DNA from: Trueperaceae bacterium
Lineage (GTDB): Bacteria > Deinococcota > Deinococci > Deinococcales > Trueperaceae
DNA: 64,000 bases
Assembly (NCBI GenBank): GCA_965213925.1
Contig: OZ243927.1
Coordinates: forward strand, 3,936,001 to 4,000,000
Direction: 5' to 3'
The position numbers and the translations under genes were made by a program. Below are positions 2,444 through 48,090 of this stretch, one piece after another. How positions within the stretch are numbered: the stretch's first letter is position 1; each line of letters opens with the position of its first letter. A model generated the notes under the pieces. The model did not search any database and was not told the origin of the DNA. It worked only from the letters and a program-made list of their open reading frames with translations.

Positions 2444-2450
2444 GCGCGGC

Positions 2451-27430: not shown

Positions 27431-28402
27431 ATGACGACAGAACGAGGCGCGATCACTAAGGCGAGGCGGCTCTCAGCGTTACCTGAACTCCTCAAGCGCA
27501 AGCCGCGCACAACCGCCGAACTCGCCGAGCACTTCGCTGTCCCTCGGCGCACGATTCAGCGCGACCTAGAGACTTTGCGCGAGGAAGGCTACGGCGTCGA
27601 AAGCCCTGAGCGGGGTCTCTACCTCATTCCCTCTAGCCCCCCCAACCTCAACGCGGTCGAAGCGCTCGCCGTCCACGCCGCCACCAGGCTCCTCTACCAC
27701 CACGCCCCAGCACGCAACCCGCACTACCGCTCCGCTTTAGAAAAGCTTGCCTCTTTACTGCCAGAACCAGCACGGGGCGTCGCACTGAGCAGCGTAGAGG
27801 CGCTGGATGAGCGTCCTCCTGACGACAGGGCGCTCGAGCTTGCCGCCCAAGCGTGGTTCGAAGAGCGCGTGCTCGCGTTCGAGTACCTCTCGCCGAACGG
27901 CTCGGGCAAGTGGCGACCCAAAGAGCTAGAGATTTACGTAATCGAGATTAGCCGAGCCAACCTCGCTCCCTACGCCATCGGCTTCGAGCGCCGCTTTCAC
28001 AACAGAGTTCAAACCTGGAAACTCTCGCGGATGCGCCAAACGCGCTTACTGGGAGACACCTACACCATCCCCCAGGGCTTCGACCCAAGGGATTACTTAG
28101 AGACCGCTTGGGGTGTCATCGGCACCAGTGGCGGGGAGACCGTAACCGTAAAGTTGCGCTTCGCACCCGAAGCCGCTCACCGCCTCCGCGAAGGCGGCTA
28201 CCCGAACATGAAAATCGAGCGAGAGCTACCCGACGACGCTTTAGAGGTCTCTATTCAGGCTGGCACGGATGACGAAGGGTTCCCCTTAGAACTTCTCTCC
28301 TGGGTGCAGAGCTGGGGGCCGCGCGTCGAGGTGCTAGAACCCCTTAACTTGCGCGAACGCTGGTTAGAGGAAGCTCGGCGCGTCGCAGGGTATACTAAGT
28401 AG
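27431..28402 (+). CDS. HTH-WYL-WCX transcriptional regulator, CRISPR-adjacent
   Basis: N-terminal HTH (ELAEHFAVPRRTIQRDL), WYL-like core (WKLSRM), C-terminal SWGPRVEVLEP. Confidence 0.9.
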   Translation: MTTERGAITKARRLSALPELLKRKPRTTAELAEHFAVPRRTIQRDLETLREEGYGVESPERGLYLIPSSPPNLNAVEALAVHAATRLLYHHAPARNPHYRSALEKLASLLPEPARGVALSSVEALDERPPDDRALELAAQAWFEERVLAFEYLSPNGSGKWRPKELEIYVIEISRANLAPYAIGFERRFHNRVQTWKLSRMRQTRLLGDTYTIPQGFDPRDYLETAWGVIGTSGGETVTVKLRFAPEAAHRLREGGYPNMKIERELPDDALEVSIQAGTDDEGFPLELLSWVQSWGPRVEVLEPLNLRERWLEEARRVAGYTK

Positions 28403-28482
28403 CGCATGTTTGTGAGGACGTTGACAACCTATGCTCGAGACTTAGAAGGGGTAAAACGCTAGTTTTGCCGTCTGGGTCAAGT
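28403..28482 (+). promoter_or_regulatory. CRISPR leader of array 1
   Basis: Last 30 nt AAAACGCTAGTTTTGCCGTCTGGGTCAAGT are identical to the leader of array 2. Confidence 0.85.
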
Positions 28483-29245
28483 GTATTCCCCACGCATGTG
28501 GGGATGAACCGCGCCGCGGCCGAGCGTGACCAGGGGCGTATTCCCCACGCATGTGGGGATGAACCGGCCTCGGCGAGCGGCGTTTCCCCACGGCAAGCAA
28601 TAGCGAAGTATTCCCCACGCATGTGGGGATGAACCGTTGTCCTCCGAGAGGTTCCCAGCCAGCTCAGGGTATTCCCCACGCATGTGGGGATGAACCGTTG
28701 AACGCCTCAGCGATGACGAAGTTGACCTCGTATTCCCCACGCATGTGGGGATGAACCGTTGACGCGCGGTGAGGTGACGGTGATGGGGATGTATTCCCCA
28801 CGCATGTGGGGATGAACCGGACCGTATGACGCAGCCAGCGCGACGCTCATTGTATTCCCCACGCATGTGGGGATGAACCGGGTACATTGTAGCTTTTCAT
28901 AAGCGCGGTGTAGTATTCCCCACGCATGTGGGGATGAACCGGTCTACAGCGGTCACGAGTACGTGACCGTGACGTATTCCCCACGCATGTGGGGATGAAC
29001 CGTGCCGCTCGCAAAGGTCTTCAAACTCGCGCTTGTATTCCCCACGCATGTGGGGATGAACCGGGATACGTGAAGATGTGGTACCAGGCGTGGCAGTATT
29101 CCCCACGCATGTGGGGATGAACCGGCCAAAGATCAAATTCAAGCGCGTATTAACCGTATTCCCCACGCATGTGGGGATGAACCGACCTCGCGCCGGTACT
29201 CGCCCCAGCGGATGAACTATTCCCCACGTGTGTGGGGATGAACCA
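28483..29245 (+). CRISPR. Type I-E CRISPR array 1: 13 repeats, 12 spacers
   Basis: 29-bp repeat GTATTCCCCACGCATGTGGGGATGAACCG; spacers 26 and 41 nt, then 31-32 nt; last repeat degenerate. Confidence 0.98.
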
Positions 29246-29473
29246 GGGGGCTGTACGCATCTCAGGTGGGCAACGAGCAGAGATAACAGGGTTCGCGGTG
29301 GTCGGGGTTCACTTGCGAATCATAAGCGCATGGAGGGCGTCACTGTGCCCATCGGTGAGCCCTTCGTGACGCCTTTGGGGGCGCGGCTGATGTATCTGAG
29401 AGACCATAGCCTTTCCGCACTAAGTTTTGAAATCTACAACTGCAGGTGCACAATAGTCGGAGTGAACCGCTAA
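29246..29473 (+). pseudogene. C-terminal fragment of a phage MuF/SPP1 gp7-like head morphogenesis protein
   Basis: RWATSRDNRVR...H..MEGVTVPIGEPF...LMY....EIYNCRCT matches the family's W.T..D.RVR..H...NCRC pattern (recognised by eye). Confidence 0.7.
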
Positions 29474-29772
29474 AGACCTAAACGCTTCTCCTCCTCGTAG
29501 AGCCTTTCAATCACAAACTCTTTCATCAGCGTTTGGTAGCCCTTACCCTTTTTTCGGGCGAGGGTCTTGAGCCGTTTGGTAAGGTCGTCGTCAAGTCGGA
29601 TAGAGGTGTTACGTGACGCACGACGCGGTCTAGCCGGTGGCAAATCGTCCTCGTCCACCTCGATCTTAGCGAGATATTCGTCCGTGACAGTATGCTCTTG
29701 CCAGAAGGCCCTAGCCTCTTCCTCGCTCATGTTCTCGGGTACTTGCTTGGGGTCGGTCAGTAGGTCGCTCAT
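29470..29772 (-). CDS. BrnA/CopG-like antitoxin
   Basis: SEEEARAFWQEH and RHH-like SIRL...LARKKGKGYQTLMK. Confidence 0.8.
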   Translation of the reverse strand: MSDLLTDPKQVPENMSEEEARAFWQEHTVTDEYLAKIEVDEDDLPPARPRRASRNTSIRLDDDLTKRLKTLARKKGKGYQTLMKEFVIERLYEEEKRLGL

Positions 29773-30047
29773 TATCGTCCTTTCTTTTTGTTGAGGCGGC
29801 GGTAGGATTTCTTTTCAGGAGGTTTGGCGTCGCGTGCGGTGATGGCTCGCCATAAGCCTTTGCCCTTTCGCTCGAGAATGACCACCAAGAGACGACCCGT
29901 ATCGGTTTTGCCGATGAAGCCGACGTTACCGCTGTGGGCACCGAAAGGGACGCGCTCAGGGTCGGTAACCGCCTCTTCAAACTCGAAATCGTCAACGTCG
30001 TGCCTTGCAATATGGTCAAGGTTGCCGTTGTCCCATTCGAATTCCAT
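29772..30047 (-). CDS. BrnT-like toxin
   Basis: MEFEWD..N..HIARH, GKTDTGRLL and ITARDA; leaderless (TATACT 6 nt upstream); coupled to the antitoxin. Confidence 0.8.
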   Translation of the reverse strand: MEFEWDNGNLDHIARHDVDDFEFEEAVTDPERVPFGAHSGNVGFIGKTDTGRLLVVILERKGKGLWRAITARDAKPPEKKSYRRLNKKKGR

Positions 30048-30100
30048 AGCTATAGTATACGCGATTGTGGGCACATCCATATACGCAACTGTTGCGAGAA

Positions 30101-30132
30101 AAGGGGCGCGGTCACCAAAGACCGCGCCCCTT
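30101..30132. terminator. Strong hairpin between the BrnT promoter and the mini-array
   Basis: AAGGGGCGCGGTC/GACCGCGCCCCTT; U-tail on the minus strand. Confidence 0.55.
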
Positions 30133-30215
30133 ACATGCCTAGGTAAAACGCTTAGTTCACCGCGTCTTTTAGCGCCTTGCCGGGCTCAAAGACGGAGTAC
30201 TTAAACACGGGTGTC

Positions 30216-30301
30216 CTATTCCCCACGCATGTGGGGATGAACCGACGGGGAAGGACTTTGAGGTCTCTCGTCTATTTCCTACGTATGTAGGGATGAAACC
30301 G
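30216..30301 (+). CRISPR. Mini-array: intact repeat, 27-nt spacer, degenerate repeat
   Basis: CTATTCCCCACGCATGTGGGGATGAACCG - ACGGGGAAGGACTTTGAGGTCTCTCGT - CTATTTCCTACGTATGTAGGGATGAAACCG. Confidence 0.9.
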
Positions 30302-30335
30302 CCCTCGAGCTAGACCGAGGAGATAACCCAAATAG

Positions 30336-30485
30336 GACGGTAGTACCGTCGTCATCTTTAATATCGGCGGAAACAAGTACCGTTTGGTCGTCTATATCAG
30401 CTATAAATCTCAGCGCGTTTATATTCGCAAAGTTATGACGCATGAAGAGTACGACTTCTGGAATGACCAAGGGAGACCGACATGA
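30336..30485 (+). pseudogene. higB: 5'-truncated HigB-family toxin
   Basis: VVIFNIGGNKYRLVVYISYKSQRVYIRKVMTHEEYD; ATGA overlap with higA; no start codon, stops upstream. Confidence 0.85.
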
Positions 30486-30895
30486 CCCAAAACCAAGTCA
30501 TCGAAGCCTGGAGCGCGTTCAAAGCAAGCACCCACTTCAAGCGCCCCGAAAGTGAAGCCGAGTACGAGGGGTTGCAAGGGCTCATGTATTACCTCATCGA
30601 CCATGACAACTGCGACGAAGAGCCCTACGCTTCTCTTTTGCATCTGGTAGGAACTTATATGGACGAGTATGAGCGCGAATATGACGCCGACTTGAAAGAT
30701 GTTGACGTGGCACCTCGGCAAATGCTCGAGTTCTACATGGATCAGCAGGGTGTAACGCAGTATCAACTTGGCAAAGAGGGCGTTGCGAGTCAGAGCGTGC
30801 TGAGCCGAGTACTTTCAGGCGAGCGTGAGATCAGCAAAACGTTGGCGAAGAAGTTGGCGGAGAGATTCAGCGCGAACGTGGAAGTCTTCTTATAA
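30482..30895 (+). CDS. higA: HigA-family antitoxin (C-terminal Xre HTH)
   Basis: SEAEYE..., MDQQGVTQ, SQSVLSRVLSGEREISK. Confidence 0.88.
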   Translation: MTQNQVIEAWSAFKASTHFKRPESEAEYEGLQGLMYYLIDHDNCDEEPYASLLHLVGTYMDEYEREYDADLKDVDVAPRQMLEFYMDQQGVTQYQLGKEGVASQSVLSRVLSGEREISKTLAKKLAERFSANVEVFL

Positions 30896-31096
30896 ATGAA
30901 GGCAGGGCTGTCGCCTGGCTACCTTGATTCTCCGTTAGAGCGCATATCGCTGTCGCTCGAGCAAGACACTCTCAAAAGGCTTAAACGCTTAGCAAAGCGC
31001 AAGGGGATGGGCTACTAAACGTTGCTCAAGTCTTTTGTAGAGGAAAGGCTCTATGAGGAGGAGAAGCGCAAAGGGATGCTCGAGATGAGTGAATGA
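30896..31096 (+). pseudogene. Degenerate copy of the BrnA/CopG-like antitoxin
   Basis: LAKRKGMGY*TLLKSFVEERLYEEEKR versus LARKKGKGYQTLMKEFVIERLYEEEKR; TAA at 31016. Confidence 0.8.
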
Positions 31097-31155
31097 TACG
31101 GATTCCGCTCATCTCCCATTGCCATTGACCTCTGAAGACGATGCAGAGCAGCTTC

Positions 31156-31746
31156 TTAAATATCCGCCAAAATCTTCTCGGCTAACTGCTTGGCGACCCT
31201 CTCTTTCGCTTCCTCTTCTCGCCGCGCTTTGTCGTACTTCGCCGCTCTGACCTTGAGCTTTTCGCCTACTACGCGGAGGGCGCGTTCAGGTTCCATGAAG
31301 GGATTGAGCACGAAGTTGTACATCTGCTTCTGCTGCTTATCAATGGCTAAAACTTGGTAATGTTTTGGGCCTAGCAGGGCGGCAAGTTCAAAGCGGTCCA
31401 TGCGCTCTGCCGCGATGACCTGCGAGTCTTTGAGCTTTCTTTTTAAGCTCCACTGATCGAGTTCACGGTCATTGTCATAAGTTGGGCGCATTCTGAGACG
31501 GCTCCACAGAAAAGGAATACCGAATACGCACAGGAAGTTGAGCCCTATGAAGCTTACGTAAGCACCAATAATAAGTCCAGTCTCATTACCAGTACTCCAC
31601 GCCATAATTGCTACGCCTAGCAGTATCAACGCTCCCCAGAGGTACATTGTCCAAAGCGATACGTACTCCTCTTTTGCAGCCGCGCTGAACCGCTTGCGCC
31701 ACGGTGGTTTCTCTACCAGTAGGTCTCTAAACAAGGTGTCTGACAT
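31156..31746 (-). CDS. Hypothetical two-TM membrane protein
   Basis: Two hydrophobic helices, charged C-terminus; AGGAGG RBS. Confidence 0.7.
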   Translation of the reverse strand: MSDTLFRDLLVEKPPWRKRFSAAAKEEYVSLWTMYLWGALILLGVAIMAWSTGNETGLIIGAYVSFIGLNFLCVFGIPFLWSRLRMRPTYDNDRELDQWSLKRKLKDSQVIAAERMDRFELAALLGPKHYQVLAIDKQQKQMYNFVLNPFMEPERALRVVGEKLKVRAAKYDKARREEEAKERVAKQLAEKILADI

Positions 31747-31877
31747 GCACGTCCTCCTATTGCAGATGATAACGAAGTGCCGGACCCCTATTATCGCACA
31801 TTACGCTTAGAAAGTGAGGGAGCGTCAGTATGTTTTTCGCGTCACCAATTGACGCCAGCGCGTGATATATCTGTTTT

Positions 31878-34544
31878 ATGTCTTTAAGTCAGAGAGCGCA
31901 GAGTTTCTGGGCGAAGAGCAGCGACGATGGGCACGGACATCCTCTTATCGCGCATCTTCTCGATGTCGCGGCTGTATCCGCAGAACTTCTAGGGCGCGAG
32001 CCCGCGCGAACCTCTCATCTCTACGCCTCCGATTTGGGTTTACCACTCGAGCAAGCGCTCCCTTGGGTTTGTGCTTTAGTAGGGCTTCACGACCTCGGCA
32101 AAGCGAGTCCTGCTTTTCAACTCACTTCGGATAAGCGCGTCAAGTGGCGAGCTGGCGCAGAGCGGCTGGAAGAGAGCGGGTTGTTGTGGCGCTCGAAGCG
32201 GCTCGACCCCGTGCCGCACGGCGTGGTGAGCCAGAAGCTGCTAGGGCGCGTTCTCGAGTCCTACGGTTGGGCAAGAAAAGCCGCTAAACACGCTGCGGAC
32301 GCAGTCGGGGCGCATCACGGATTTAGAGCGACGGGAGATGAGCTTAAACGCATCGGCACAGTTGAGCTGGGTGATGAAATTTGGGACGAAGCTCGAGCAG
32401 AACTGGTCGAAGCGTTATTGAAGGCTGCCGGGGTTTCTAAAGGCGCTCCGACCTGCGAACGCTTGGGCGGCGCAGCCTTCATGCGCCTCGCCGGACTCAC
32501 GAGCTTTGCCGACTGGATAGGCTCCAACCCCGACTTCTTCGGTTACGAGCGAGGGGTCGGCGACCCGGCGGCGTACTATCAAAGGTCGTTGGGAAAGGCG
32601 CGGCGGGCGCTCGAGACGATTGGCTGGGAAGCGCGTGAGCCGCTGCGCCCCGCGCTCATCACCTTTTCGGATGTTTTTCCCTTCGCACCGCGACCGTTGC
32701 AACGCGTCTTGGAGGGAAAAGTCGAGGGACTTAGCGAGCCGACCCTCCTCATCGTCGAAGCGCCGATGGGCGAGGGCAAGACCGAGGCGGCGTTCTTCGC
32801 GCATCTGCGTTTGCAAGCGCAAAGTGGACACCGAGGGATGTACGTTGCGCTGCCGACCCAAGCGACGGGCAACGCGATGTTCGAACGCACAAAGCAGTTT
32901 TTAGGCGAGCAGGGACATGCGTCACCGCCTGACTTACAGCTTTTGCACGGCTCCGCCATCCTCGAGGAAAGCTACGCCAACATGCGCGTGAAAAACGTCG
33001 GGGGGAGCGGTGAAGCAGTCGTCGCTAGGGAGTGGTTCACCGCCAAAAAGCGTGCGCTTCTCTCGGAATATGGCGTTGGCACGGTGGACCAAGCGCTGCT
33101 GTCGGTGCTCAACGTCAAGCACCAGTTCATCCGCCTGTGGGGGCTCGGCAACCGCGTGGTTGTCATTGACGAGGTGCACGCCTACGACACGTATACCTCA
33201 CACCTTATCGAAACCCTCATACGCTGGCTGCACGCGCTGGGCTCGTCTGTCATCTTGATGAGCGCGACGCTCCCTAAAGCGCGAAGGGAGGCGCTTTTGG
33301 AGGCTTACGGCGCGAAGGATATACCGGACATTCCGTACCCTCGCCTTCTTAAAGTGAGCGGCGCAGAGGTCTCCGCTGAAACATTTGAGACCCGCGCGTT
33401 GCCCACGCTTACACTCAAGAAGACCGCGCAAGAGGTTGCGACTTTAGCAGACCTGCTCTTTCAGGAGACTGCCGAGGGTGGCTGCGCGGCGTGCATCCTC
33501 AACACGGTGCAGCGGGCGCAAGAGGTGTACTGCGAGTTGCGACTTCGCTTTGACGGCGACCTCATCCTCTTCCACGCTCGCTTCCCGGCTGAGGAGCGGC
33601 AAAAGCTCGAGCAAGAGGTACTGAGACGCTTCGGCAAAGACAGCGCTCACCGTCCGAAAAAGGCTATTTTAGTCGCCACGCAAGTTGTCGAGCAGAGCCT
33701 AGACGTGGACTTCGACGTGATGGTCAGCGACCTCGCGCCCGTCGATCTCATCTTGCAGCGTTCGGGGCGGCTCCATAGGCACGAAGGCAAACACGCCACG
33801 CGCCCTAAAAGCCTGAAAACGCCGAAGCTGTACGTGGCAGGGTTGGAGCACAGCGGGGACTTACCCGACCTGAGCACGCACCACTTTGACTACGTTTACG
33901 ACCCTTACATCCTCTTAAAAACCTGGCTCGCGCTGCGCGAAAAACGAACCATCACGCTACCAGACGATTTTGAACCTCTTATCGAAGTCGTCTATTCGGA
34001 CATCGAACTCGCTAACTTATCTTCGACTATTTCGGAGGCGCTTGAGGCGGCTCGAGAGGTCTCCACAAGAGAGATTGCTGAACATAAAACCGCAGCAAAA
34101 AGCGTGATTATCGGGCAACCCGAAACGCTTACGAAGAATAATCCGCCAGGTCATCAGGTGAGCGAAGACGATGAGAACCCTGAACTGCACCCCACGCTGA
34201 GAGCGCAGACTCGTCTCGGCGAAAAGAGCCTGAGCGTTATTCCGCTCTTCCTCAAAGATGAACAATTTCACATAACGCCAGAGGGCAACTCGGTTACGCT
34301 TTTGGACAAAGCGCCAACCTGGGATGAAGCGAAGCGGCTTTACCTTCGCAACGTGAAGTTGAGCCGAAAGGGAGTCGTCCATGAACTTTCAGAGCAGCCC
34401 GTACCCGAGGGGTGGGAAAAGCACCCCCTCCTCAGAAATTGCCGTCCTTTGATCTTAGAGAACGGTCAAACGCAGATTGGAAACACGGTTGTTAGCCTCG
34501 AGCCTGACTTGGGCGTCGTCTATAGGAAAGTTGATGACCTATAA
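31878..34544 (+). CDS. cas3: Cas3 HD nuclease-helicase
   Basis: WAKS, HLLDV, HDLGK, APMGEGKT, DEVH, SAT and QRSGRLHRH motifs. Confidence 0.97.
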   Translation: MSLSQRAQSFWAKSSDDGHGHPLIAHLLDVAAVSAELLGREPARTSHLYASDLGLPLEQALPWVCALVGLHDLGKASPAFQLTSDKRVKWRAGAERLEESGLLWRSKRLDPVPHGVVSQKLLGRVLESYGWARKAAKHAADAVGAHHGFRATGDELKRIGTVELGDEIWDEARAELVEALLKAAGVSKGAPTCERLGGAAFMRLAGLTSFADWIGSNPDFFGYERGVGDPAAYYQRSLGKARRALETIGWEAREPLRPALITFSDVFPFAPRPLQRVLEGKVEGLSEPTLLIVEAPMGEGKTEAAFFAHLRLQAQSGHRGMYVALPTQATGNAMFERTKQFLGEQGHASPPDLQLLHGSAILEESYANMRVKNVGGSGEAVVAREWFTAKKRALLSEYGVGTVDQALLSVLNVKHQFIRLWGLGNRVVVIDEVHAYDTYTSHLIETLIRWLHALGSSVILMSATLPKARREALLEAYGAKDIPDIPYPRLLKVSGAEVSAETFETRALPTLTLKKTAQEVATLADLLFQETAEGGCAACILNTVQRAQEVYCELRLRFDGDLILFHARFPAEERQKLEQEVLRRFGKDSAHRPKKAILVATQVVEQSLDVDFDVMVSDLAPVDLILQRSGRLHRHEGKHATRPKSLKTPKLYVAGLEHSGDLPDLSTHHFDYVYDPYILLKTWLALREKRTITLPDDFEPLIEVVYSDIELANLSSTISEALEAAREVSTREIAEHKTAAKSVIIGQPETLTKNNPPGHQVSEDDENPELHPTLRAQTRLGEKSLSVIPLFLKDEQFHITPEGNSVTLLDKAPTWDEAKRLYLRNVKLSRKGVVHELSEQPVPEGWEKHPLLRNCRPLILENGQTQIGNTVVSLEPDLGVVYRKVDDL

Positions 34545-36054
34545 CTTTAACCTCACCACCGAGCCTTGGATTCCTGTACGTAATTTGGAGGACAGACTCG
34601 AGCTTCTCAGCTTAGAAGACGCGCTTCTAAGGGCGCATACGCTCCACCGTATCGAAGACCCCTCACCTCTCGTCGTGGCATCTTTACATCGGCTACTTCT
34701 CACTGTGCTGCACCGAGCGTTGAGAGGTCCTGAAGACCTCGAGCAAGCGGCGGACTGGTTTGAGGCGGGACGGCTTCCGGCTGAACCCACCAAGAAGTAT
34801 CTCGAAAGGTGGCGTGAGCGCTTTGACCTCTTTAGCGACACGCACCCTTTCTATCAAGTACCGGATTCTGAGGAGAAGGTTCAGCCTATCTCGAAGCTGG
34901 CGGCAGAACTCTCGAGCGGCACGAATAAACTCCTTTTCGACCACTCACAAGACGCGCAGCCGCTCGCCGTTTCTCCTGCTGTAAGCGCCCGCCTCCTCCT
35001 CGCCCGGCAGATGCTCGCCGTACCCGAAGGCGCAGGCTACAGCCCGAGTCCGTTGGGTGGCACAGCGGTCACGATTCCGCAAGGAGCCACCCTCTTCGAG
35101 ACACTATGCCTCAACCTCGTCACGTATGACGCAGACGAGACGGGCGACGCGCCAATTTGGGAAGAGGACGCGCCGACCTCAAAAAGTATCAAAGAGAACA
35201 AGGAGCGAACGGCGCTTGGGCTCACGAACCGCTACACCTGGCTCAGCCGCTCAGTGAGGCTCGAGCCAGAAAGAGATGAACGCGGCGAAACCGTCGTGCG
35301 CTGGCTGCGCTATACGACAGGCTTGAAGTTTCTACCCGGCGAAGTCTTCGTCGCTGACCCGATGCTCGCGTACCGCAGGGACGAGAAGCGGGGCAACTTG
35401 CCGCAGGGCTTTCGCAAGGGGCGCGGATTCTGGCGAGACTTTCTTGCCCTCGTGCCCAACTCAAACGAAAAGGGACTGCTCACGCCACCCGCGATTGACC
35501 ACGCGCTAGGCGTCTACGAAGCGTTGGACGTTCACAAGCCGCTACAGATAATGGTCTTGGGTCTCTCCAACGACAAAGCCAAAGTCGAGCTGTGGCGGAG
35601 CGAGGTCTTCTATCTTCCTGACGTGCTCACGCAGGACAATCGCGCCTACGAATTGGTGGAAGACGCCTTGCAAAGCGCCGAAGAAACAGGGCGAGAGCTT
35701 CGCAAGGCGGGCTTTGTGCTCGCGGCGAATCTGCTCACGACGGGCGAGCGTCAACCCGACCCCAATGATTCAGCTAGGCTGCGCGACAGCTTCCCGCTGG
35801 ACGCGGTGTACTGGTCGAGGCTCGAGACGCGCTTTCCAGCCTTTTTAGAGAGGTTCAAACCAGGTTATGACGCTGAGGCTCTTTTTGATGATTGGCTCGA
35901 GGAACTCGTCAGCGCGGCGCGTGATGCGTGGAAGAAAACGGCGCAGAGCGTTGGCAAGGACGCGAGAGCGTTGAGGGCACAACAGGAAGGGGACAGGGTG
36001 TTGAGCAGACATATCAATCAACTTCGCCGCGAATCTGGTGAGGTGGCGTCGTGA
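34534..36054 (+). CDS. cas8e: Cascade large subunit Cas8e (Cse1/CasA)
   Basis: FNLTTEPWIPV, FDLF..HPFYQ and LFDH motifs; operon position. Confidence 0.93.
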   Translation: MTYNFNLTTEPWIPVRNLEDRLELLSLEDALLRAHTLHRIEDPSPLVVASLHRLLLTVLHRALRGPEDLEQAADWFEAGRLPAEPTKKYLERWRERFDLFSDTHPFYQVPDSEEKVQPISKLAAELSSGTNKLLFDHSQDAQPLAVSPAVSARLLLARQMLAVPEGAGYSPSPLGGTAVTIPQGATLFETLCLNLVTYDADETGDAPIWEEDAPTSKSIKENKERTALGLTNRYTWLSRSVRLEPERDERGETVVRWLRYTTGLKFLPGEVFVADPMLAYRRDEKRGNLPQGFRKGRGFWRDFLALVPNSNEKGLLTPPAIDHALGVYEALDVHKPLQIMVLGLSNDKAKVELWRSEVFYLPDVLTQDNRAYELVEDALQSAEETGRELRKAGFVLAANLLTTGERQPDPNDSARLRDSFPLDAVYWSRLETRFPAFLERFKPGYDAEALFDDWLEELVSAARDAWKKTAQSVGKDARALRAQQEGDRVLSRHINQLRRESGEVAS

Positions 36055-36554
36055 CACTGAACCTTGCAGAAGATTTCGTGGCACATCTCAAGAAGCTCGC
36101 AGGCGAGAACGGAGGAAACCCGAACCGCGCCGCGCTCGCCGAGTTACGCCGAAGCTTGACACAAGCGCCAGGAACCTATGTGCGGGCGTATCGGTACGTG
36201 CCGCCTTACGTGCATAACCTCTTTCAAGAGCAGCGAGACGCCTACTTTCTTGTAGCGGGTCTCTTCGCAAGTCACGTAGATACGGCGTCAGATGAGTCTC
36301 TGGGCGCATCCATCAAAAAACTTTACAGAGAGAAAGATTCGTCAGAGAGCGTCGAAAAGCGCTTTATCACCCTCTTGGACGCGGATGAAACGCAGCTTCC
36401 CTACAGGCTCAGACAGATGGTGTCGCTACTCAAGAGCGAGGACATACCCGTTGACTACCTCAGCCTGCTTCAACATCTCACCCATTGGAGCCATCCAGAC
36501 CGCTGGGTGCAGCAGCGCTGGGCACGCGACTTTTACCGTTCAGCACACGGCTAA
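36051..36554 (+). CDS. cse2: Cascade small subunit Cas11 (Cse2/CasB)
   Basis: LAELRR, VEKRF..LL and WARDFY motifs. Confidence 0.93.
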   Translation: MTLNLAEDFVAHLKKLAGENGGNPNRAALAELRRSLTQAPGTYVRAYRYVPPYVHNLFQEQRDAYFLVAGLFASHVDTASDESLGASIKKLYREKDSSESVEKRFITLLDADETQLPYRLRQMVSLLKSEDIPVDYLSLLQHLTHWSHPDRWVQQRWARDFYRSAHG

Positions 36555-36574
36555 ATTAGGGCTAAGGAGACCCC

Positions 36575-37756
36575 ATGAACGCACTTTTGGAACTTCACAT
36601 CTTACAGAACTTCGCCCCCTCGCTCCTCAACCGCGACGACACCGGCTCCCCGAAAGATTGCGAATTCGGCGGCACCCGCCGTGGGCGCATCTCGAGCCAG
36701 TGCTTAAAACGCGCCGCCCGTGAGTACATTCGCGACAACGATTTGCTCGAGGAAAATGACATGGCGCTGCGAACGAAGCGGCTCACGCAGGCGTTGCAGG
36801 AAAAGCTTAAAGGGCGTGGACACGACAACGAAGAGAAGACCGAACAGGTCATCGAGGCGGCACTCGGCGGTTTGGGGCTCGCGCTGGACAAAAAGGGTGA
36901 GGAGGCGGAGGCGAAAACGCAGTACCTCCTCTTTATCGGCGTGCAAGAGGTGGAAAAACTCGCCGAGCTGATTCACGAACACTGGGACGACTTAGCGAAG
37001 GTCAGCGCGGCGGAGGATTCGGGGAAGAGCAAAAAGAAAACGGCGAAGGCGGCGGTGGATAAGGAAATCAGCAAAGCGATGATGGACAGTCTCGACGGAG
37101 GCAAGGCGGTAGACTTAGCACTTTTCGGGCGGATGCTCGCTGACCTCCCTCAGCGCAACCGCGACGCGGCGTGTCAGGTGGCGCACGCCCTCTCCACGAA
37201 CGCCGTCGCTAGAGAGTTCGACTTCTACACTGCTGTGGACGACCTCAAGCCGGACGACAACGCCGGAGCCGACATGCTGGGCACGGTTGAATTCAACTCC
37301 GCGTGCTACTACCGCTACGCCGCGCTAGACTTAGAGAAGCTGCTGGAGAACCTGCAAGGGGACAAGTCGTTGGCGCTTAAAGGGTTGGAGGCGTTCGTCC
37401 GGGCGAGCGTATTGGCGCTGCCGAGCGGCAAGCAAAACTCCTTCGCCGCGCACAACCCGCCGAGCTTCGTCGCCTTGACCGTGCGGCAGGGCGCTGCGCC
37501 GCGCAACCTTGCTAATGCGTTTGAAGTGCCCGTGCGTCCGAATAGCAGAGACAACGAGGGATTGAGCGAAGGCGCTTTACAGAAGCTCGAGGCGATGTGG
37601 CGGCGGCTCGACACGGTCTACAGCAACGGGAGCGTCAGCACCGCCTGTTTGAACCTCACGGATGCGAAATTGACCTATCTCGGCGAACATGTCAAAGAAT
37701 CCCTCGAGAGAGCGCTTAGCGACACCTTAAATGCGGCTGACCAGGTGATGGGCTAA
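36575..37756 (+). CDS. cas7: Cas7 (Cse4/CasC)
   Basis: [25 protein letters not shown] and DFYTAVDD motifs. Confidence 0.97.
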
Positions 37757-37758
37757 GC

Positions 37759-38403
37759 GTGACGACCCTTCTAATGCGCTTAGCCGGACCCATGCAATCG
37801 TGGGGCACGCGCAGCCGCTTCGACGAGCGCGACACCGGGCTCGAGCCCTCTAAAAGCGGCGTGCTCGGGCTTGTGTGCGCCGCGCTCGGGCGTGATCGAC
37901 ACGAAAGCGTGGCGGACCTCGCCGCGCTCAAGATGGGCGTGAGGGTAGACCATGAGGGCATCCTTAAATACGACTACCAAACCGCGCAAAACATCATCGG
38001 TGCGGATGGGAAAAAGATGCACGCTACGGCTGTGACTCAACGCTTCTACCTCTCTGACGCGGTCTTCCTCGTCGGGCTCGAGGGTGACGAAGAACTTTTA
38101 GAACGCATTCACCACGCACTTTACAATCCGCACTGGTTCCTCTCACTCGGGCGCAAATCATATCTGCCGAGCCGGAGCGTGTGGTTAGAAGATGGGCTGC
38201 GTGACGCGCCGCTTTGGGAAGCACTTTCCACCTATCCATCTTTGCTCGCTGAAGGCGACACGACCTGTCGCTACGTCCTCGAGAGTTCCGAAGGTGCACT
38301 GCGCACTGACGAACCCCTCGCGCCCTTCGCCGAGCGGCGTTTTGGCATTCGCTATGTTCAAACGAGGCAGGGAAAGGTGGGGAAACCCGATGTATCTCTC
38401 TAA
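37759..38403 (+). CDS. cas5: Cas5e (CasD)
   Basis: LAGPMQSWG, PSKSGVLG and LGRKS motifs. Confidence 0.96.
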   Translation: MTTLLMRLAGPMQSWGTRSRFDERDTGLEPSKSGVLGLVCAALGRDRHESVADLAALKMGVRVDHEGILKYDYQTAQNIIGADGKKMHATAVTQRFYLSDAVFLVGLEGDEELLERIHHALYNPHWFLSLGRKSYLPSRSVWLEDGLRDAPLWEALSTYPSLLAEGDTTCRYVLESSEGALRTDEPLAPFAERRFGIRYVQTRQGKVGKPDVSL

Positions 38404-38971
38404 GCTCGCACCGAATCTTCGTAACCTTCAGGCGCGGCGTGACCTAGCTAATCCTTATGAGATGCACCGCACGTTGGCTCGAGCAGCCCATTCAGAAAGT
38501 GAGCGGTTGCTCTGGCGGCTCGAGGAGGACGAGCAGCCGACGCTGCTCGTCCAGACACTTTCAGAACCTGACTGGACGTTTCTTGACCCCGCGTATCTTC
38601 GTTGTCCTCCAAAAGCTAAAGCTGTGCACCTCAACTTCGCTAAAGGGCAGACGCTCCGCTTTCGCCTTAGGGCAAATCCAACCGTCAAACGTCAGGGAAA
38701 GCGCCAAGCGCTCTACGCTATTCAAGATCAGCATGAGTGGCTAAAACGCAAGGCTGAGCAGGCGAGCTTTAACATTTTGGGCGCAATGGCGCACCGTCAA
38801 GAGCAGTTGCGAGCGAAGCGCCAGGGCAAAACGGTCACGCTCTTCGCAGTTACGTTCGATGGGCATCTACAAGTCGCTGAGCCGAATTCCTTTCAAACTG
38901 CGCTTGAAAACGGGATAGGTTCAGCCAAAGGCTTCGGTATGGGTCTCCTCTCCCTCGCCCCGGACGCCTGA
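38390..38971 (+). CDS. cas6e: Cas6e (Cse3/CasE)
   Basis: MYLSKL, YEMHRTL, FRLRANP and GIGSAKGFGMGLL G-loop. Confidence 0.96.
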   Translation: MYLSKLAPNLRNLQARRDLANPYEMHRTLARAAHSESERLLWRLEEDEQPTLLVQTLSEPDWTFLDPAYLRCPPKAKAVHLNFAKGQTLRFRLRANPTVKRQGKRQALYAIQDQHEWLKRKAEQASFNILGAMAHRQEQLRAKRQGKTVTLFAVTFDGHLQVAEPNSFQTALENGIGSAKGFGMGLLSLAPDA

Positions 38972-39954
38972 TGCCCTCCTTACGCAACCTCCGCGAACTC
39001 CCCAAGTTCCGCGACGGTCTCTCGTACCTCTACATCGAGCGCGGACGCATCGAGCAAGACGCTAAAGCTATCGCTTGGTACGGCGAAGAGGGCAAGGTGA
39101 GCGTACCCGCTGCCGCGCTGGGCGTCCTTATGCTCGGCCCCGGCACGAGCATTACGCACGAAGCCGTGAAAGCCCTAGCCGATAACGGCTGCCTCATCAA
39201 CTGGGTCGGCGAGGACAGCGTGCGCTTTTACGCGGGCGGCACGGGCGAGACGCGCAGCAGCGCCAACCTCATGCGCCAAGCGGAATACTGGGCAGACCCC
39301 GCCAAGCACCTTCGAGTCGTGCGGCGCATGTACGGGATGCGCTTTGAGGATGGGCTCGAGCCCGGACTAACCTTAGAGCAGATTCGCGGCAAGGAGGGCG
39401 TGCGGGTGCGCACCGTCTATGCCCGCATGAGTAAGGAAACGGGCGTTCCCTGGCACGGGCGCAGCTATAAGCGCGGCACGTGGGGCAGCGCCGACCCCAT
39501 CAACCGCGCCCTCTCCGCTGGAGCCGCTTGCGTTTACGGCGTTTGCCACGCCGCTATCGTTTCAGCAGGCTACAGCCCCGCACTTGGCTTTATCCACACA
39601 GGCAAGCAACTCTCCTTTGTCTACGACATCGCCGACCTCTACAAGATGGAGGTGCTCGTGCCCGCTGCGTTTAGACTCGTCGCTGAGTCAGACGAACATG
39701 TAGAGAGCCGCATCCGGCATTACCTCCGGGACGCCATGCGCGAGGCGCGAATGTTGGAGCGCGTCGTGAGCGACCTGCACAATCTCTTCAGCAGCGACGA
39801 AGGGAGCGGTGAACGCTTTGCCGAAGACGGCGCAGCACCGGGCGAACTGTGGGACCCGAGCGGCAACGTGGAAGGAGGGGTGAGCTATGGTGGTGATGAC
39901 GCTCGAGAAAGTACCGACGAGCCTACGCGGAGAACTGAGCCGCTGGATGGTTGA
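38971..39954 (+). CDS. cas1: Cas1 (type I-E)
   Basis: LMLGPGTSITH, RGKEG.RV, GFIHTG and FVYDIADLYK motifs. Confidence 0.97.
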   Translation: MPSLRNLRELPKFRDGLSYLYIERGRIEQDAKAIAWYGEEGKVSVPAAALGVLMLGPGTSITHEAVKALADNGCLINWVGEDSVRFYAGGTGETRSSANLMRQAEYWADPAKHLRVVRRMYGMRFEDGLEPGLTLEQIRGKEGVRVRTVYARMSKETGVPWHGRSYKRGTWGSADPINRALSAGAACVYGVCHAAIVSAGYSPALGFIHTGKQLSFVYDIADLYKMEVLVPAAFRLVAESDEHVESRIRHYLRDAMREARMLERVVSDLHNLFSSDEGSGERFAEDGAAPGELWDPSGNVEGGVSYGGDDARESTDEPTRRTEPLDG

Positions 39955-40240
39955 AGTCTCTACAGGCGTCTACGTCGGCAAACTGAGCGCTCTAGTGCGC
40001 GACCTCTTGTGGGAAAAGGTGATGGCGAGCAAACGCACCGGGCGCTGCTGTCAGGTCTACCGCACCAATACGGAGCAGGGTTTTGTCATTCGCATGGACG
40101 GCGACTCAGAACGGAGCGTGGTTGACCTAGACGGGTTACACTTAGTTGCAGTGAAGAACGCGGCGTGGGAAAAGATGTTCGTTGAGCCCGCTGAGGACTA
40201 TGAAAGCATGGATGGAGACATAGAGGGGTCAAAACGCTAG
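39887..40240 (+). CDS. cas2: Cas2 (type I-E), no DnaQ fusion
   Basis: LRGELSRW, GVYVG, EQGF and DLDGLHLV motifs. Confidence 0.95.
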   Translation: MVVMTLEKVPTSLRGELSRWMVEVSTGVYVGKLSALVRDLLWEKVMASKRTGRCCQVYRTNTEQGFVIRMDGDSERSVVDLDGLHLVAVKNAAWEKMFVEPAEDYESMDGDIEGSKR

Positions 40241-40260
40241 TTTTGCCGTCTGGGTCAAGT

Positions 40261-41119
40261 CTATTCCCCACAGGCGTGGGGATGAACCGTCCTGCGGCTT
40301 GCTATTCCCCACAGGCGTGGGGATGAACCGCTCGAGTTCCGCGCTGCCTAGAACCCTTGCCCTATTCCCCACAGGCGTGGGGATGAACCGACTGTCAAGT
40401 TCACCGTGCCTTTCGACCTGTCCTATTCCCCACAGGCGTGGGGATGAACCGCCGCAGCCCGACATCATCGGGCGCAACCACTTCTATTCCCCACAGGCGT
40501 GGGGATGAACCGAGGCGATCCTTCTCTATCTGCATGTCAAAGACTATTCCCCACAGGCGTGGGGATGAACCGAGTCGAAAGATGAGTTGGCGCTCGAGCT
40601 TATCCTATTCCCCACAGGCGTGGGGATGAACCGGTCTTTTACTGCGCGGCTACCTAATCGGCGTTCTATTCCCCACAGGCGTGGGGATGAACCGCTCGAG
40701 CCTCTGACTCCCGTCCAGCAGCAAAGCTATTCCCCACAGGCGTGGGGATGAACCGCACGCGGGCGAAAAAGCCCTGCGTCCCTTTGGCTATTCCCCACAG
40801 GCGTGGGGATGAACCGACGCCGGGAATGATTTTTTCAAGTCCACTTACCTATTCCCCACAGGCGTGGGGATGAACCGCAAGCGTAAAACCAGGTGCGACG
40901 GTACTTCCCCTATTCCCCACAGGCGTGGGGATGAACCGGGCTCGTTGCGGTTTTGGATAGCCTCTACAACCTATTCCCCACAGGCGTGGGGATGAACCGT
41001 AGATGAGCGCAAGGACGGTAGGAACCAACCCTATTCCCCACAGGCGTGGGGATGAACCGGGCGGCGCAGCCCTCACCCTCTACTCCCTCCCTATTCCCTA
41101 CAGGCGTGGGGATGAACCG
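40261..41119 (+). CRISPR. Type I-E CRISPR array 2: 15 repeats, 14 spacers
   Basis: Repeat CTATTCCCCACAGGCGTGGGGATGAACCG; first spacer 12 nt, others 31-32 nt. Confidence 0.98.
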
Positions 41120-42153
41120 CAGAGATGCGAAGCACCTCGAGTCAAACAACAAACATTGCTAATATTTCGCTAACTGGTATTCGTCCAATACTCGCACCCC
41201 TCCCACCCCTCGAGGAACAAAAACGCATCGTCGTCAAAGTGGACGAGCTTATGGGGCTTATAGACACGCTCGAGGCGCAAGAACGCGCCAAAAGGGACGC
41301 CCGCATGAGGTTCGGCGGTGCGGCGCTAGGCTCTCTCCTAAGCGCAGAGGACGCGGACACGTCTGCGTGGAGCTGGCGGCGCGTGCGGGACAACTTCGAC
41401 CTCTTGTGCGCTGCGCCGGGGAGCGTCGCGGAGTTGCGCAAGGCGGTGTTGCAACTGGCGGTGCAGGGGAAGCTCGTGCCCCAAGACACAAGTGATACAA
41501 ATTGGAAAGAAGTGTCTTTACAAACTTTACTACGAGAAAATTCTCGTAACGGGCTTTCTTCGCGTCCTTCCGATAGCCCTCCAGGTGTCCCGATTTTAAG
41601 AATCAGCGCTGCCACCTCACGCCATGACGCAATAGTAGACGAAAGCGACTACAAATATCTTGAAGTGGATGAAGCTGACCTGAAAAAATACGCCTTAGAG
41701 TCGGACGATTTGTTAGCGTGTCGATTCAACGGCAACCTGCATTATGTAGGAAGGTTTGCCCTTTATTTGAACTACTCGGATGAAACTCGCCTCTATCCAG
41801 ATAAACTCATTAGATTTAGAGTTGACGACACCAAAGTGATACCAAAATATGTCTGTCTAGCTATGAATAGCTCTGAAGGTAGGAAGAAAATAGAATCATA
41901 TTGCGCTACTACTGCGGGCAATATAGGTATAAGCGCGACCAATCTAAAAACTGTCATGATTCCCCTCCCGCCCCTCAACGAACAAAAACGCATCGTCGCT
42001 AAGGTGGATGAGCTTATGGGGCTGATTGACGCGCTGGAGGAGGGGCTAAAGCGGGCGCAGGGGGACGCGGAGCGGCTTTTGGAGGCTGCTGTCCGTAGCC
42101 TCCTCACGCGGAACCGCGCAGCGTCCGCTCGCCGTAGTCACGCCGATGCTTAG
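41120..42153 (+). pseudogene. hsdS: 5'-truncated type I restriction-modification specificity subunit
   Basis: Two PLPPL.EQKRIV.KVDELM repeats and LAVQGKLVPQD; first TRD almost entirely missing; no hsdM/hsdR nearby. Confidence 0.88.
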
Positions 42154-42870
42154 AGCAAAATCGGTTGACGCGCCCTTCTCCGAGTGAGAGGTGAAGGGGT
42201 TTTGGGGTGTAGCGCGGCGTCGCGCCCGCGTCAAAACGGATTTTCACCTCTTTTGATAATGTTTCTCTCAGAGAAACGTGCGGCGAGCGTCCAAATGCCT
42301 TCAAAAACACGCCGACCCAAATAAAAAGACACCTCTCCTTAATACTTTAGACGTTCTTTAGCAAAGTCAAAATCTTTTCGTTTTCTAAAGCGTAGCGTTC
42401 TTTAGGCGCTCTTTAGCGAGGCTTATCTTCTTAACGCTTCTTTGAGCTTGGAGGTTGAGGCTACACTGAGCCCTAGCGCCAAGCGTAAACGCTCGGACTA
42501 GAGCGCGATGTGGTGAGCAGTAACGCTTCCCGTCGCCCATCGGCGTCAGCCACAGTAGCAGCCGCTTGTGCGACCTCCCCCTCTGCTACGACCCAACGGT
42601 AGGGGGTTGGTGAAATCACCGCGAAAGCGCACTGCTGTCTAAGGTCTCAACCTCTTACCAACTGCGTCTCGCGAACAGGGGTGCCTTTATCGGACACAGC
42701 TTCTTGCTGCCACCGCGTCAAGGACTTGGGCGAGTATTCTCTAGCCCCCTGCGGGCTTGCCACTATAGTAGAGGTCTGGCTCCCTAAAAGCTGTGAAACT
42801 TTCAGGGAGGTTTCAATCCCAAGTACCGCAATTCAGAATTCTGTAACACTGTTTTATATATGCTAAAAAA

Positions 42871-43026
42871 ATGAAAACTGTCGCGTTCTTAATAGTAATG
42901 ATGGCTTGCGGATTCCTCGGAATGTCAATAGGTTTGAGCGCTGGATTTGGTGAGCTAGGTTTAGTATTGGGCTTGAGCGTAGGAGCATGGATCAACAAAA
43001 GCGCTAAGTTTGACAATCAAATATAA
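42871..43026 (+). CDS. 51-aa hydrophobic Gly-rich membrane peptide (not in the ORF track)
   Basis: MKTVAFLIVMMACGFLGMSIGLSAGFGELGLVLGLSVGAWINKSAKFDNQI; TATGCT 6 nt before ATG. Confidence 0.55.
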   Translation: MKTVAFLIVMMACGFLGMSIGLSAGFGELGLVLGLSVGAWINKSAKFDNQI

Positions 43027-43324
43027 ATTGCACACGTCCATTTACTAACTGTTGAAGATGACGTACTGGACGTGCTCGAGCGTCCGGGTAAGCCTCAAGC
43101 ATATGCCGTTGCTATGCCGTTTGTACTCGTGAAAGCAGGCTTGGAGTTCGCTTAGGTATCGGTCTCTCGACCACTTACTGAGGTCCTCATTATCTACAGC
43201 TTCGAGCTTCCGGGAAGCGTAAACAGCGCCGGTCCGGGTTCGGCACGGGTCCTTTGCTCTTTCCCAAATTAAATCTAGCTATATCGCTGCTAAAACAGGT
43301 AAGCTCCAGCGCAGTCCGCTGAGC

Positions 43325-43816
43325 TTATAACCCTAGCGCCTCTCGCATCAGCCCAGCCTCGGGAACGTAGCCGGGCATAACCTGGAGGATTTGCCCTTTC
43401 TGGTCTACCACCATAAACGCAGGTACGCCTTGCAAGGACGCCTCGTCATAGAACGCCTCGTCCGGGTCGAGGTAGGCGGTGTCCGTGAAGCTCGAGGCGA
43501 AGTCCGCGCAACTCTCGCGGCTGTCTGCGCCGACGACGACAGCCATAGGGATGCCGTCACTCAACAACTCGGCGCTGAGCGTCTGAATCATCGGTCTCGC
43601 CGCGTGGCAGTGTGGACACCAGGGCGCGACGTAAACGACGAGGCAGCGCCGAGCCTCGCAGCGAACCGCGCTCTCTTGCTCGGGCTGCTCAGCCGCCGAG
43701 AAGCGCTCTAAGGTCAAGGTGGGTAGCATCTGCTGACCTGTCCATGAAGCGGGCAGCGGGGCAAAAAGTAAGGCGAAAGCGGCGAGCACGGAGACGGCGG
43801 CGATAGCGCGTAGCAT
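43325..43816 (-). CDS. Thioredoxin-like (TlpA) exported protein
   Basis: APWCPHC, GVP cis-Pro loop, signal anchor. Confidence 0.85.
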   Translation of the reverse strand: MLRAIAAVSVLAAFALLFAPLPASWTGQQMLPTLTLERFSAAEQPEQESAVRCEARRCLVVYVAPWCPHCHAARPMIQTLSAELLSDGIPMAVVVGADSRESCADFASSFTDTAYLDPDEAFYDEASLQGVPAFMVVDQKGQILQVMPGYVPEAGLMREALGL

Positions 43817-43931
43817 ACCGAGCAGGGTAGCGCAGCCCGTCTCACAGAAACCTTACAGCGCGGATAGAGTAAGACTTTTGTAAGAGCCTCTCCGCTAAGC
43901 TCCAGGTCGAAATTCTTTTGGAGGATGCGAT

Positions 43932-44309
43932 GTGAACAAACTTTTTTCGATGCAGGGTAGGTTAGGTAGAGGCAATTACTTCTTGATCTCAGTCGTGGCG
44001 TTTCTCATTTATATCTTGGTCCTGTTTTTCGTTGGGCTGGCACTAGGCACTGCTTTGTCCGAGGAAGAGCTGACGATGTTTTCTAACGTTCTTATGATTC
44101 CCTATATCATCGTCATTGCGGTGGCGAAGGTTAAGCGCCTGCACGACCTTGACCGCCCCGGCGCTCACTACTGGCTTCAGCTCATTCCGATATACGGGCT
44201 CTACCTCGAGCTTCTTCTATTGCTTAAACCAGGCACAGAGGGAGAGAACCGCTACGGTCCTGGCTCTACGCAGCCACAGACAGTGAGCGACGAGGTATTG
44301 GCGGTCTAA
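43932..44309 (+). CDS. DUF805 membrane protein
   Basis: GRLGR..Y, KRLHDLDR.G and GENRYG motifs. Confidence 0.88.
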   Translation: MNKLFSMQGRLGRGNYFLISVVAFLIYILVLFFVGLALGTALSEEELTMFSNVLMIPYIIVIAVAKVKRLHDLDRPGAHYWLQLIPIYGLYLELLLLLKPGTEGENRYGPGSTQPQTVSDEVLAV

Positions 44310-45103: not shown

Positions 45104-45199
45104 TACCTGCCTCACACGCAACACCTTGTGCAACCTGTAAAAAGCACGTAATTTCTTAAACCCAAGACAATTCATTCAACCTTTGGAGGTCATACATCT

Positions 45200-47967: not shown

Positions 47968-48038
47968 GTTGAATCCTTTCAACTGAGAGATTCCCAAAGG
48001 GCTCGAGGCTTTCCAGGCGTAAGCCCTTTGGGTAGCAT

Positions 48039-48084: not shown

Positions 48085-48090
48085 AGGGGT

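Follow-up and report, generated by a model that had tools for sequence, protein, structure and literature searches.

The DNA analyzed here (the window) is a 64,000-nt stretch, G000:C1:3936001-4000000, of the 4.75-Mb Trueperaceae genome G000, and it carries three CRISPR arrays, each of which is followed by a 5'-truncated gene. Array 1 is joined to a piece of a phage MuF-like gene (MuF', joint J1), array 2 to a piece of hsdS (hsdS', joint J2), and a mini-array to a piece of higB (higB', joint J3). Read along the plus strand, serS and proS (both minus strand) precede a WYL regulator, the leader, array 1, MuF', a brnA/brnT pair (minus strand), the mini-array, higB', higA, a brnA''-like remnant, a 196-aa gene (minus strand), cas3 through cas2, array 2, hsdS', a thioredoxin gene (minus strand), a DUF805 gene, an HTH_17 excisionase-like gene, a gene for a 633-aa winged helix-turn-helix (wHTH) protein, a tyrosine integrase, and finally tRNA-Ala(CGC) on the minus strand. 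A pattern search of the whole 4.75-Mb genome (≤3 mismatches) found 29 copies of the repeat, all of them within these three arrays, so that "every array" means three out of three.

The operon at 31878..40240 (+) was assigned to type I-E by Pfam, with matches well above cut-off for cas3, cse1, cse2, cas7, cas5, cas6e, cas1, and cas2; all eight genes lie in one operon and its Cas2 is of the I-E type. The closest named relatives of its Cas1 are from Trueperaceae. The arrays are likewise of type I-E, with 29-nt palindromic repeats, spacers of ∼32 nt (31–32 nt in 22 of the 27 G000 spacers), and a leader next to cas2 that is conserved between G000 and the congeneric genome G001. The HTH-WYL-WCX regulator (27431..28402, +; Pfam WCX, HTH_11, and WYL; 86% nucleotide identity to G001) forms the left end of a CRISPR block common to G001, which corresponds to window positions 27410-41119.

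Array 1 (28483..29245, +) consists of 13 repeats, identified by repeat search. Alignment showed that the final 26 nt of cas2 recur in its leader (28437..28482, +), within an 84-nt direct repeat (28437-28520 and 40215-40298, 86% identical); because of this cas2 3' remnant we conclude that array 1 arose by duplication. Twelve of its 13 repeats have a GCAT loop, and only the terminal repeat (29217-29245) has GTGT, the loop type of array 1 in G001 and the one used throughout that genome (compared over L012:3589-4165). The loop types of array 1 are a collapse-and-repopulate pattern in which the terminal repeat is ancestral. The final base of that repeat is A instead of G. At the other end of the array, the leader-proximal spacers are irregular (26 and 41 nt; 28512-28607), as is the first spacer of array 2, at only 12 nt (40290-40301; 24 nt in G001), an irregularity suggestive of integration errors or of small deletions close to the leader.

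The fragment behind array 1, MuF' (29246..29473, +), is the 3' end of a MuF-like phage gene for a minor capsid protein and encodes its last ∼65 residues; ∼227 residues are missing (tblastn, alignment, and Pfam). Its alignment to residues 228–292 of a 305-aa phage MuF-like protein, at 39% identity, begins at 29249, 3 nt past the repeat, and the same frame matched 152 phage records by tblastn. The Pfam match to Phage_Mu_F (PF04233) is marginal (E 0.004) and covers just profile positions 66–111 of 112, so that MuF' holds only part of the domain; it lies outside any head-morphogenesis cluster, with no phage genes recognized by Pfam alongside it. Convergent on MuF' is a toxin-antitoxin pair, brnA (29470-29772, −; Pfam CopG_antitoxin/BrnA) and brnT (29772-30080, −; Pfam BrnT_toxin, below its cut-off).

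The mini-array (30216..30301, +; repeat search) is made up of one repeat (30216-30244), a 27-nt spacer, and a degenerate 30-nt repeat (30272-30301) with an extra A. A leader-like motif, a 16-nt match to the leader of array 1, lies 58 nt upstream of it (30142..30157, +), and its score was reached by none of 2000 shuffles; a lone repeat in G001 and the repeats of G063 (described below) gave no significant leader match (544, 136, and 40 of 2000 shuffles). Since the mini-array thus has its own leader remnant, the segment 29246-30215 (MuF'-BrnTA) is not a giant spacer, a reading that we had considered and rejected. Behind the mini-array, higB' (30302..30485, +; Pfam and alignment) comprises a degraded stretch (30302-30335) and a clear second half of the HigB domain with a stop codon (30336-30482 matches HigB_toxin, PF09907, at E 2.8e-17 over profile positions 36–72 of 74). 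It has 78% nucleotide identity to the higBA of the family genome G019 and matches the C-terminal part of the intact 111-aa G019 HigB. An earlier note on this DNA had rightly placed a truncated higB behind the last repeat of the mini-array, but its reading of the intervening 34 nt as about one spacer is probably not right: this stretch shows degraded in-frame similarity to higB, with two stop codons and an 18-nt gap ("RR*PK*" vs. "RERYPN...K"). Because it resembles degraded higB and not a spacer, higB' probably reaches to about 5–15 nt from the degenerate repeat, judging from alignment, and this is the weakest of the three mappings. No full RelE-like domain lies upstream of higA, given the stop codons in the upstream part of higB', and higA itself (antitoxin, HTH_3; 30482..30895, +; Pfam) is apparently intact. 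It is followed by the brnA''-like remnant (30896..31106, +), a 5'-truncated antitoxin gene recognized from its inverted nucleotide similarity to brnA and from translations, which touches no repeat.

Array 2 (40261..41119, +; repeat search) has 15 repeats, the terminal one (41091-41119) with one mismatch. The adjoining hsdS' (41120..42153, +; alignment, Pfam, and NCBIfam) comprises the tail of a first target recognition domain (TRD1), the central conserved region, TRD2, and the C-terminal conserved region, and lacks ∼215 N-terminal residues. HsdS homology begins at 41122, as seen by aligning the TRD1 tail to the protein's own second TRD tail. The fragment aligns with residue 218 onward of a 466-aa HsdS from G001 (82% identity over 119 aa), where the full hsdS stands beside hsdM and its conserved regions are 96–98% identical in DNA to those of hsdS'. 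A complete specificity subunit would show two TRDs with conserved regions between them, alongside hsdM and hsdR. With a single Methylase_S domain, a partial NCBIfam match (PRK09737, profile positions 194–398 of 461), and no cognate hsdM in G000 (best match to the hsdM of G001, 32%), hsdS' is a fragment of an HsdS family member. No DNA paralogue of hsdS' and no MuF paralogue were found in the G000 genome. At 41197-41275 and 41962-42040 of the window, with loose ends of contigs from sequencing run X3 at 41960-41962, several X3 contig sequences share the hsdS C-terminal conserved region and differ upstream of it, which suggests hsdS variants with swapped recognition domains in that sample. The hsd locus of G001 (L011, G001:C4:806000-825000) is a defense cluster with a SIR2-like 1310-aa protein, hsdS, HepT/MNT, hsdM, a NACHT-HEAT protein, and an EcoEI-type hsdR part. 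About 1 kb downstream of hsdS there is an additional copy of its C-terminal conserved region, and a ribonucleotide reductase with a LAGLIDADG intein adjoins the cluster.

The junctions that the earlier note had described for arrays 1 and 2, with a truncated MuF directly behind the last repeat of one and the tail of an HsdS TRD directly behind that of the other, were therefore found as stated, with homology starting at 29249 and 41122 (repeat ends at 29245 and 41119). The three fragments share the orientation of array transcription, again in agreement with that note, and the breakpoints do fall at repeat edges, with homology beginning within about 3–15 nt of the last repeats.

Comparison within the genus places these joints in an evolutionary frame. 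G002 has no CRISPR locus; there, a cyclase gene and kynureninase are followed by ∼50 nt, a hairpin, and tRNA-Ala. In G001, a 13.2-kb block homologous to window positions 27410-41119 stands between kynureninase and the hairpin, in the order WYL regulator, leader, array 1, a 1086-nt unrelated insert, a lone repeat, a brnA-like gene, the 196-aa gene, cas3 through cas2, and array 2. This brnA-like gene has no brnT in the ∼230 nt before the shared flank; directly behind the lone repeat, it keeps the N-terminal part of the gene that is represented in G000 by the brnA'' remnant. Array 2 of G001 ends in a perfect repeat, which is followed directly by CTGAATGAG, the hairpin, and the tRNA. In G000, CTGAATGAG starts at 49550, and 8.43 kb sit exactly between the last base of the repeat and this G001-type trailer, with a 2-nt overlap. 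The distal flanks (the 196-aa gene with cas3, and tRNA-Ala) are common to both genomes, while the DNA directly 3' of the last repeat differs between them at all three arrays; the switch is exact at array 2 and lies within ∼3–15 nt at array 1 and the mini-array, with no alignment past the last repeat. None of the three trailers in G001 abuts a truncated open reading frame (ORF) recognizable by Pfam, and no spacer is common to G000 and G001. The left neighbor of the block also differs, being proS in G000, whose kynureninase lies 300 kb away beside unrelated genes only; the missing 5' halves of the J1–J3 genes were not found there. Next to this kynureninase (L211, G000:C1:3664000-3682000, positions 78-5417), in the place that the CRISPR block occupies in G001, we observed a gene for a low-GC 892-aa protein with an HSDR_N-like nuclease domain and, convergent with it, one for an 873-aa protein with no family assignment; these may be another defense insert at the same hot spot.

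The 8.43-kb segment that is absent from G001 (41120..49549, +; comparison and Pfam) contains hsdS', the thioredoxin gene (−), DUF805, the HTH_17 excisionase-like gene, the 633-aa wHTH gene, and the tyrosine integrase (48376-49518, +; PF00589). Behind the integrase come a 31-nt arm in which CTGTAG-like motifs recur, a terminator hairpin (49550-49612, −), and tRNA-Ala(CGC) (49613-49688, −). The 3' end of the integrase, the arm, the hairpin, and tRNA-Ala are collinear at all four loci examined from one other genus (G117, G074, G025, and G090), with 72–75% nucleotide identity over window positions 49315-49690; the only cargo shared with these loci is the integrase, at 55–60% amino acid identity. 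The attachment (att) block of this integrase family corresponds to window positions 49600-49657: G090 carries a 60-nt copy of it (the last 45 nt of the tRNA plus 13 nt; 88% identity) 8.7 kb from the tRNA, a duplication that, as read from the alignment, has the form of the expected attL/attR pair, and G074 has a tandem att copy. No second att copy was found in the window (25-nt probe, ≤3 mismatches, one match) or in the whole G000 genome, so that the integrase stands beside its target tRNA as in a tRNA-integrating island, with the direct att repeat present at one end only. Given the genome-wide absence of the distal att, we regard the island as a truncated, immobilized remnant. On this comparative evidence, the segment 41120-49549 is an integrase island that retains the native end next to the tRNA but no longer has its distal one, with hsdS' as its clipped edge; because the native tRNA end is in place and the distal att is missing, the joint at array 2 would be the edge of a neighboring element and not a captured piece. 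Direct targeting of the repeat edge by this integrase at J2 was also considered and rejected: the 2-nt overlap comes with weak similarity (judged by eye), and the att site of the family lies in the tRNA.

These results, together with the survey described next, do not support the main proposal of the earlier note, that the arrays may mark CRISPR-linked capture of long DNA. At array 2, the segment is an integrase island with a native tRNA end and no distal att in the genome, no repeat is duplicated around its 8.43 kb, and no repeat occurs at 49549/49550. At array 1, a repeat does follow 970 nt after J1, but it has its own leader remnant. Full-site integration by Cas1-Cas2 would leave a duplicated repeat, which is lacking, and inserts set by the ∼32-nt ruler, vs. 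the 0.97 and 8.43 kb seen here. Integration of a phage or island into a repeat fares no better, as Pfam recognized no integrase at J1 or J3.

A survey of related type I-E systems asked whether truncated genes are enriched at their trailers; the earlier note had named a lack of such enrichment as grounds for refuting its proposal. Among 80 Cas1-related loci, 67 had an array, and these provided 27 array ends with at least 400 nt beyond them; six ran into N, leaving 21 usable junctions in 19 loci. Fifty-two of 96 N-free candidate frame pieces were sent to Pfam (short, overlapping, and N-gap-junction pieces were dropped), 10 frames open at a junction were re-scanned at E 0.05, and eight of those were also searched in NCBIfam. 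In none of the 21 junctions did Pfam or NCBIfam detect a domain cut off at the repeat, at a sensitivity that recovered three of the three window fragments at E 0.05 and two of three at E 0.001. Enrichment was thus not borne out, and the repeat/fragment pattern belongs to this locus, not to I-E arrays at large, which by the criterion of the note counts against capture as a general mechanism. Where genes lie nearest to related trailers they are whole, as with HemD, an aminotransferase, and an inositol monophosphatase whose start is ∼21 nt past the repeat; other trailers hold insertion sequence remnants on the opposite strand, and the usual array end is a degenerate or 3'-truncated repeat (L039, L083, L085, G032, and G034). 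None of seven other loci had tRNA genes near its arrays. Nothing stated here depends on the unpublished genome G035. One further locus, in G063 (L206, G063:C2:5268500-5274500, positions 2336-3337), has an orphan lone repeat, 882 nt with a DUF2283 gene and a small ORF, and then a mini-array (repeat, 32-nt spacer, degenerate repeat) right after which a 319-aa ORF starts, with no cas genes nearby.

Close donors of the fragments were likewise sought. Fifteen of 121 family genomes matched the J1–J3 region, with just higBA and at no more than 78% identity; no close HsdS donor was found among metagenome contigs (best match 48% protein identity), and no close MuF donor among 44 viral loci (best match 54% protein identity).

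Taking these lines together, we somewhat favor the reading that module turnover and deletion in a defense island at tRNA-Ala left the joints as scars, and that CRISPR adaptation did not produce them. The arrays would have had mobile neighbors, namely a phage remnant, toxin-antitoxin cassettes, and, inside an integrase island, a type I restriction-modification gene; these would later have been clipped or replaced by deletion or by illegitimate, short-homology recombination, and in each event one of the breakpoints would have fallen where a CRISPR repeat ends on its 3' side. At array 2, the genome comparison shows that a tyrosine-integrase island entered the tRNA-Ala site next to the array. That its distal part, including attL and the first half of hsdS, was lost afterward is shown by the absence of attL from the genome, and the repeat|hsdS' joint seen today would be what such a deletion left. 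Short homology may have been available at the repeat ends: in two of the three terminal repeats the last bases deviate (G to A in array 1, an extra A in the mini-array), as would suit crossing-over within the end of a repeat. The orphan state of hsdS' and the absence of truncated domains at the 21 related trailers count in favor of turnover. The empty site in G002, the block in G001, and the clean 8.43-kb difference in G000 at the repeat edge all support turnover, and so does the further decay around the arrays, where brnA'' is 5'-truncated away from any repeat and the lone repeat of G001 is followed by a brnA without brnT. The shared orientation of the three fragments has p = 1/8 by chance alone and would be partly expected: a higBA-type operon can presumably be clipped without harm to the cell only if the toxin end goes first. 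Among the alternatives offered in the earlier note, repeat-bounded deletion comes close to this reading and in that form is retained, while its headline of capture is not.

Several observations weigh against module turnover by ordinary deletion. The breakpoints lie nearer to the 3' edge of the repeat than random deletion in a 61-nt period predicts, with J1 and J2 within 3 nt of the repeat end and J2 exact with respect to the G001 trailer; no result obtained here explains this position. The swap of trailer flanks between G000 and G001 at all three arrays hints at a process specific to the repeat edge, and the change at array 2 could be an insertion plus a deletion in G000, or a deletion in G001. 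In the survey, an unannotated frame runs open from the repeat at five or six of the 21 junctions, the genomes are mostly distant, and Pfam misses families that it does not hold. A less likely second reading is that recombination is active where the last repeat ends on its 3' side, letting I-E arrays repeatedly trim and re-join adjacent mobile DNA, either through Cas1-Cas2 attack or through crossover between a new self-targeting spacer and its protospacer in a neighboring element. An active repeat edge would explain why trailers are swapped at repeat edges between two congeneric genomes.

The second of these routes can be stated as an escape from self-targeting, in which an in-cis crossover between a 32-nt spacer and a directly oriented protospacer deletes the interval and the former spacer becomes the start of the fragment. 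Such a deletion would be under strong selection, and its predictions agree exactly with observation: a full repeat that passes directly into colinear sequence from inside a gene, together with loss of attL and of the near end of the island; recombination between phage and CRISPR spacers has reportedly been described (Varble and colleagues in 2019). We nevertheless think it improbable, since no spacer matches the genome outside the arrays (the best match among 27 G000 and 14 G001 spacers spans 27 nt with 3 mismatches, E 0.07), two of the terminal repeats are imperfect at the junction, and none of the 21 related trailers is alike. The other route, with Cas1-Cas2 acting at the spacer-side edge of the last repeat by half-site integration of a long DNA end or through a repaired nick, draws on established biochemistry: the I-E integrase attacks this very edge, where the joints lie, and the 29th base of I-E repeats derives from the protospacer-adjacent motif, and at J1 this base is A instead of G. 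Against it stand the single repeat at the 8.43-kb segment, the other end of which is the native integrase-tRNA junction, insert lengths that ignore the 32-nt ruler, the separate leader remnant of the repeat downstream of J1, and, once more, the related trailers (0/21); we know of no published in vivo case in which Cas1-Cas2 joined long DNA at a repeat edge, and we consider this route very unlikely.

The arrays might instead be the incoming part, with leader-repeat units or the whole CRISPR block inserted in or beside MuF, higB, and hsdS genes already in place, or with arrays seeded at repeat-like sites. The block is indeed an insertion relative to G002 whose right end is exactly a repeat, and the cas2 3' remnant in the leader of array 1 does attest to duplication. 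The missing 5' halves of the genes, however, lie neither across any of the arrays nor elsewhere in the genome, and the repeats are canonical and not gene-derived, which leaves this explanation with a slim chance. That the joints reflect contigs mis-joined at CRISPR repeats is unlikely, and we hold it to be the least probable of the explanations weighed here. Repeats are classic mis-join sites, and among the read-contig pieces listed none bridges a junction, including 41119; contig C1, however, is 4.58 Mb long, the genome holds no other array with which to mis-join, run X3 contains the flanks of 41119 at 100% identity, and the independent assembly of G001 has the same architecture of array, insert, lone repeat, cas operon, and array. 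Run X5, which bears the same species label, covers almost nothing of the window, and among the contig pieces listed from the marine metagenome runs X1 and X2 is a ∼93–95% identical relative of positions 42007-49644.

If the joints are ordinary decay, the locus gives a well-documented case in which one tRNA site carries a CRISPR-Cas block with an integrase island stacked on it, and it cautions that partial genes behind arrays are pseudogenes. Should repeat edges prove to be preferred breakpoints, arrays would shape defense islands and discard neighboring mobile elements, which would bear on the birth, movement, and loss of arrays themselves, and an active edge would leave promoter-less, co-oriented, 5'-truncated genes under array read-through; we found no terminator-like site between array 1 and MuF' or between the mini-array and higB'.

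Some features of the region stand apart from the joints. The 196-aa gene (31156-31746, minus strand), just 5' of cas3 and also present in G001, has no family assignment, and neither does the 633-aa island protein (45200-47101), which has a central winged-helix domain. Further upstream, ychF looks split, with the GTPase part (22584-23273) and the YchF C-terminal domain (23278-23670) in different frames, through a frameshift or sequencing error. A ∼110-nt repeat element, MITE-like or REP-like (resembling miniature inverted-repeat transposable elements or repetitive extragenic palindromes), occurs in dozens of copies across G000, G001, and G002, for example at about 57396-57506 and 22238-22313 of the window and at L012:209-315, 3391-3497, and 15644-15882; one copy, found at this place in G001 alone, separates the WYL gene from the leader of array 1.

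Parts of this arrangement resemble known systems. A CRISPR review describes, in the part of its text retrieved, trailer ends that are conserved, terminal repeats that are polymorphic or truncated, ectopic integration, and arrays that collapse and are then repopulated (PMC8047081). The terminal repeat of array 1, alone in having the ancestral loop type, and the related arrays that end in degenerate or 3'-truncated repeats agree with that description, whereas the terminal repeats of the window arrays are full length and abut coding fragments. That part of the review makes no mention of gene fragments fused to terminal repeats, and the passages returned by a full-text literature search contained no report of truncated genes so fused.

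Prophage integration into CRISPR repeats has reportedly been observed (Varble and colleagues in 2021), and there as here mobile DNA is joined to an array at repeat or spacer boundaries; in the window, however, J1 and J3 show neither att homology to the repeat nor an integrase, and the sole integrase is of a tRNA-Ala-targeting family. Genome deletions that follow CRISPR self-targeting, said to have been described by Stern and colleagues in 2010 and Vercoe and colleagues in 2013, resemble the situation at array 2 in that a neighboring island lacks one end and the array lies next to the scar, but no self-targeting spacer remains here, and to our knowledge repeat edges are not given as the end points of the published deletions. 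Mini-array regulators such as CreA/CreR, reportedly characterized by Li and colleagues in 2021 and Shmakov and colleagues in 2023, call to mind the repeat, short 27-nt spacer, and degenerate repeat found here upstream of cas3 and beside toxin-antitoxin genes, although the spacer has no seed match anywhere in the window. From typical tyrosine-integrase islands at tRNA genes, the 8.43-kb segment differs in that the distal att copy is gone and the island ends in half an hsdS fused to a CRISPR repeat; it shares with them an integrase beside tRNA-Ala, an excisionase-like HTH_17 gene, and relatives that have the same layout of integrase, arm, hairpin, and tRNA.

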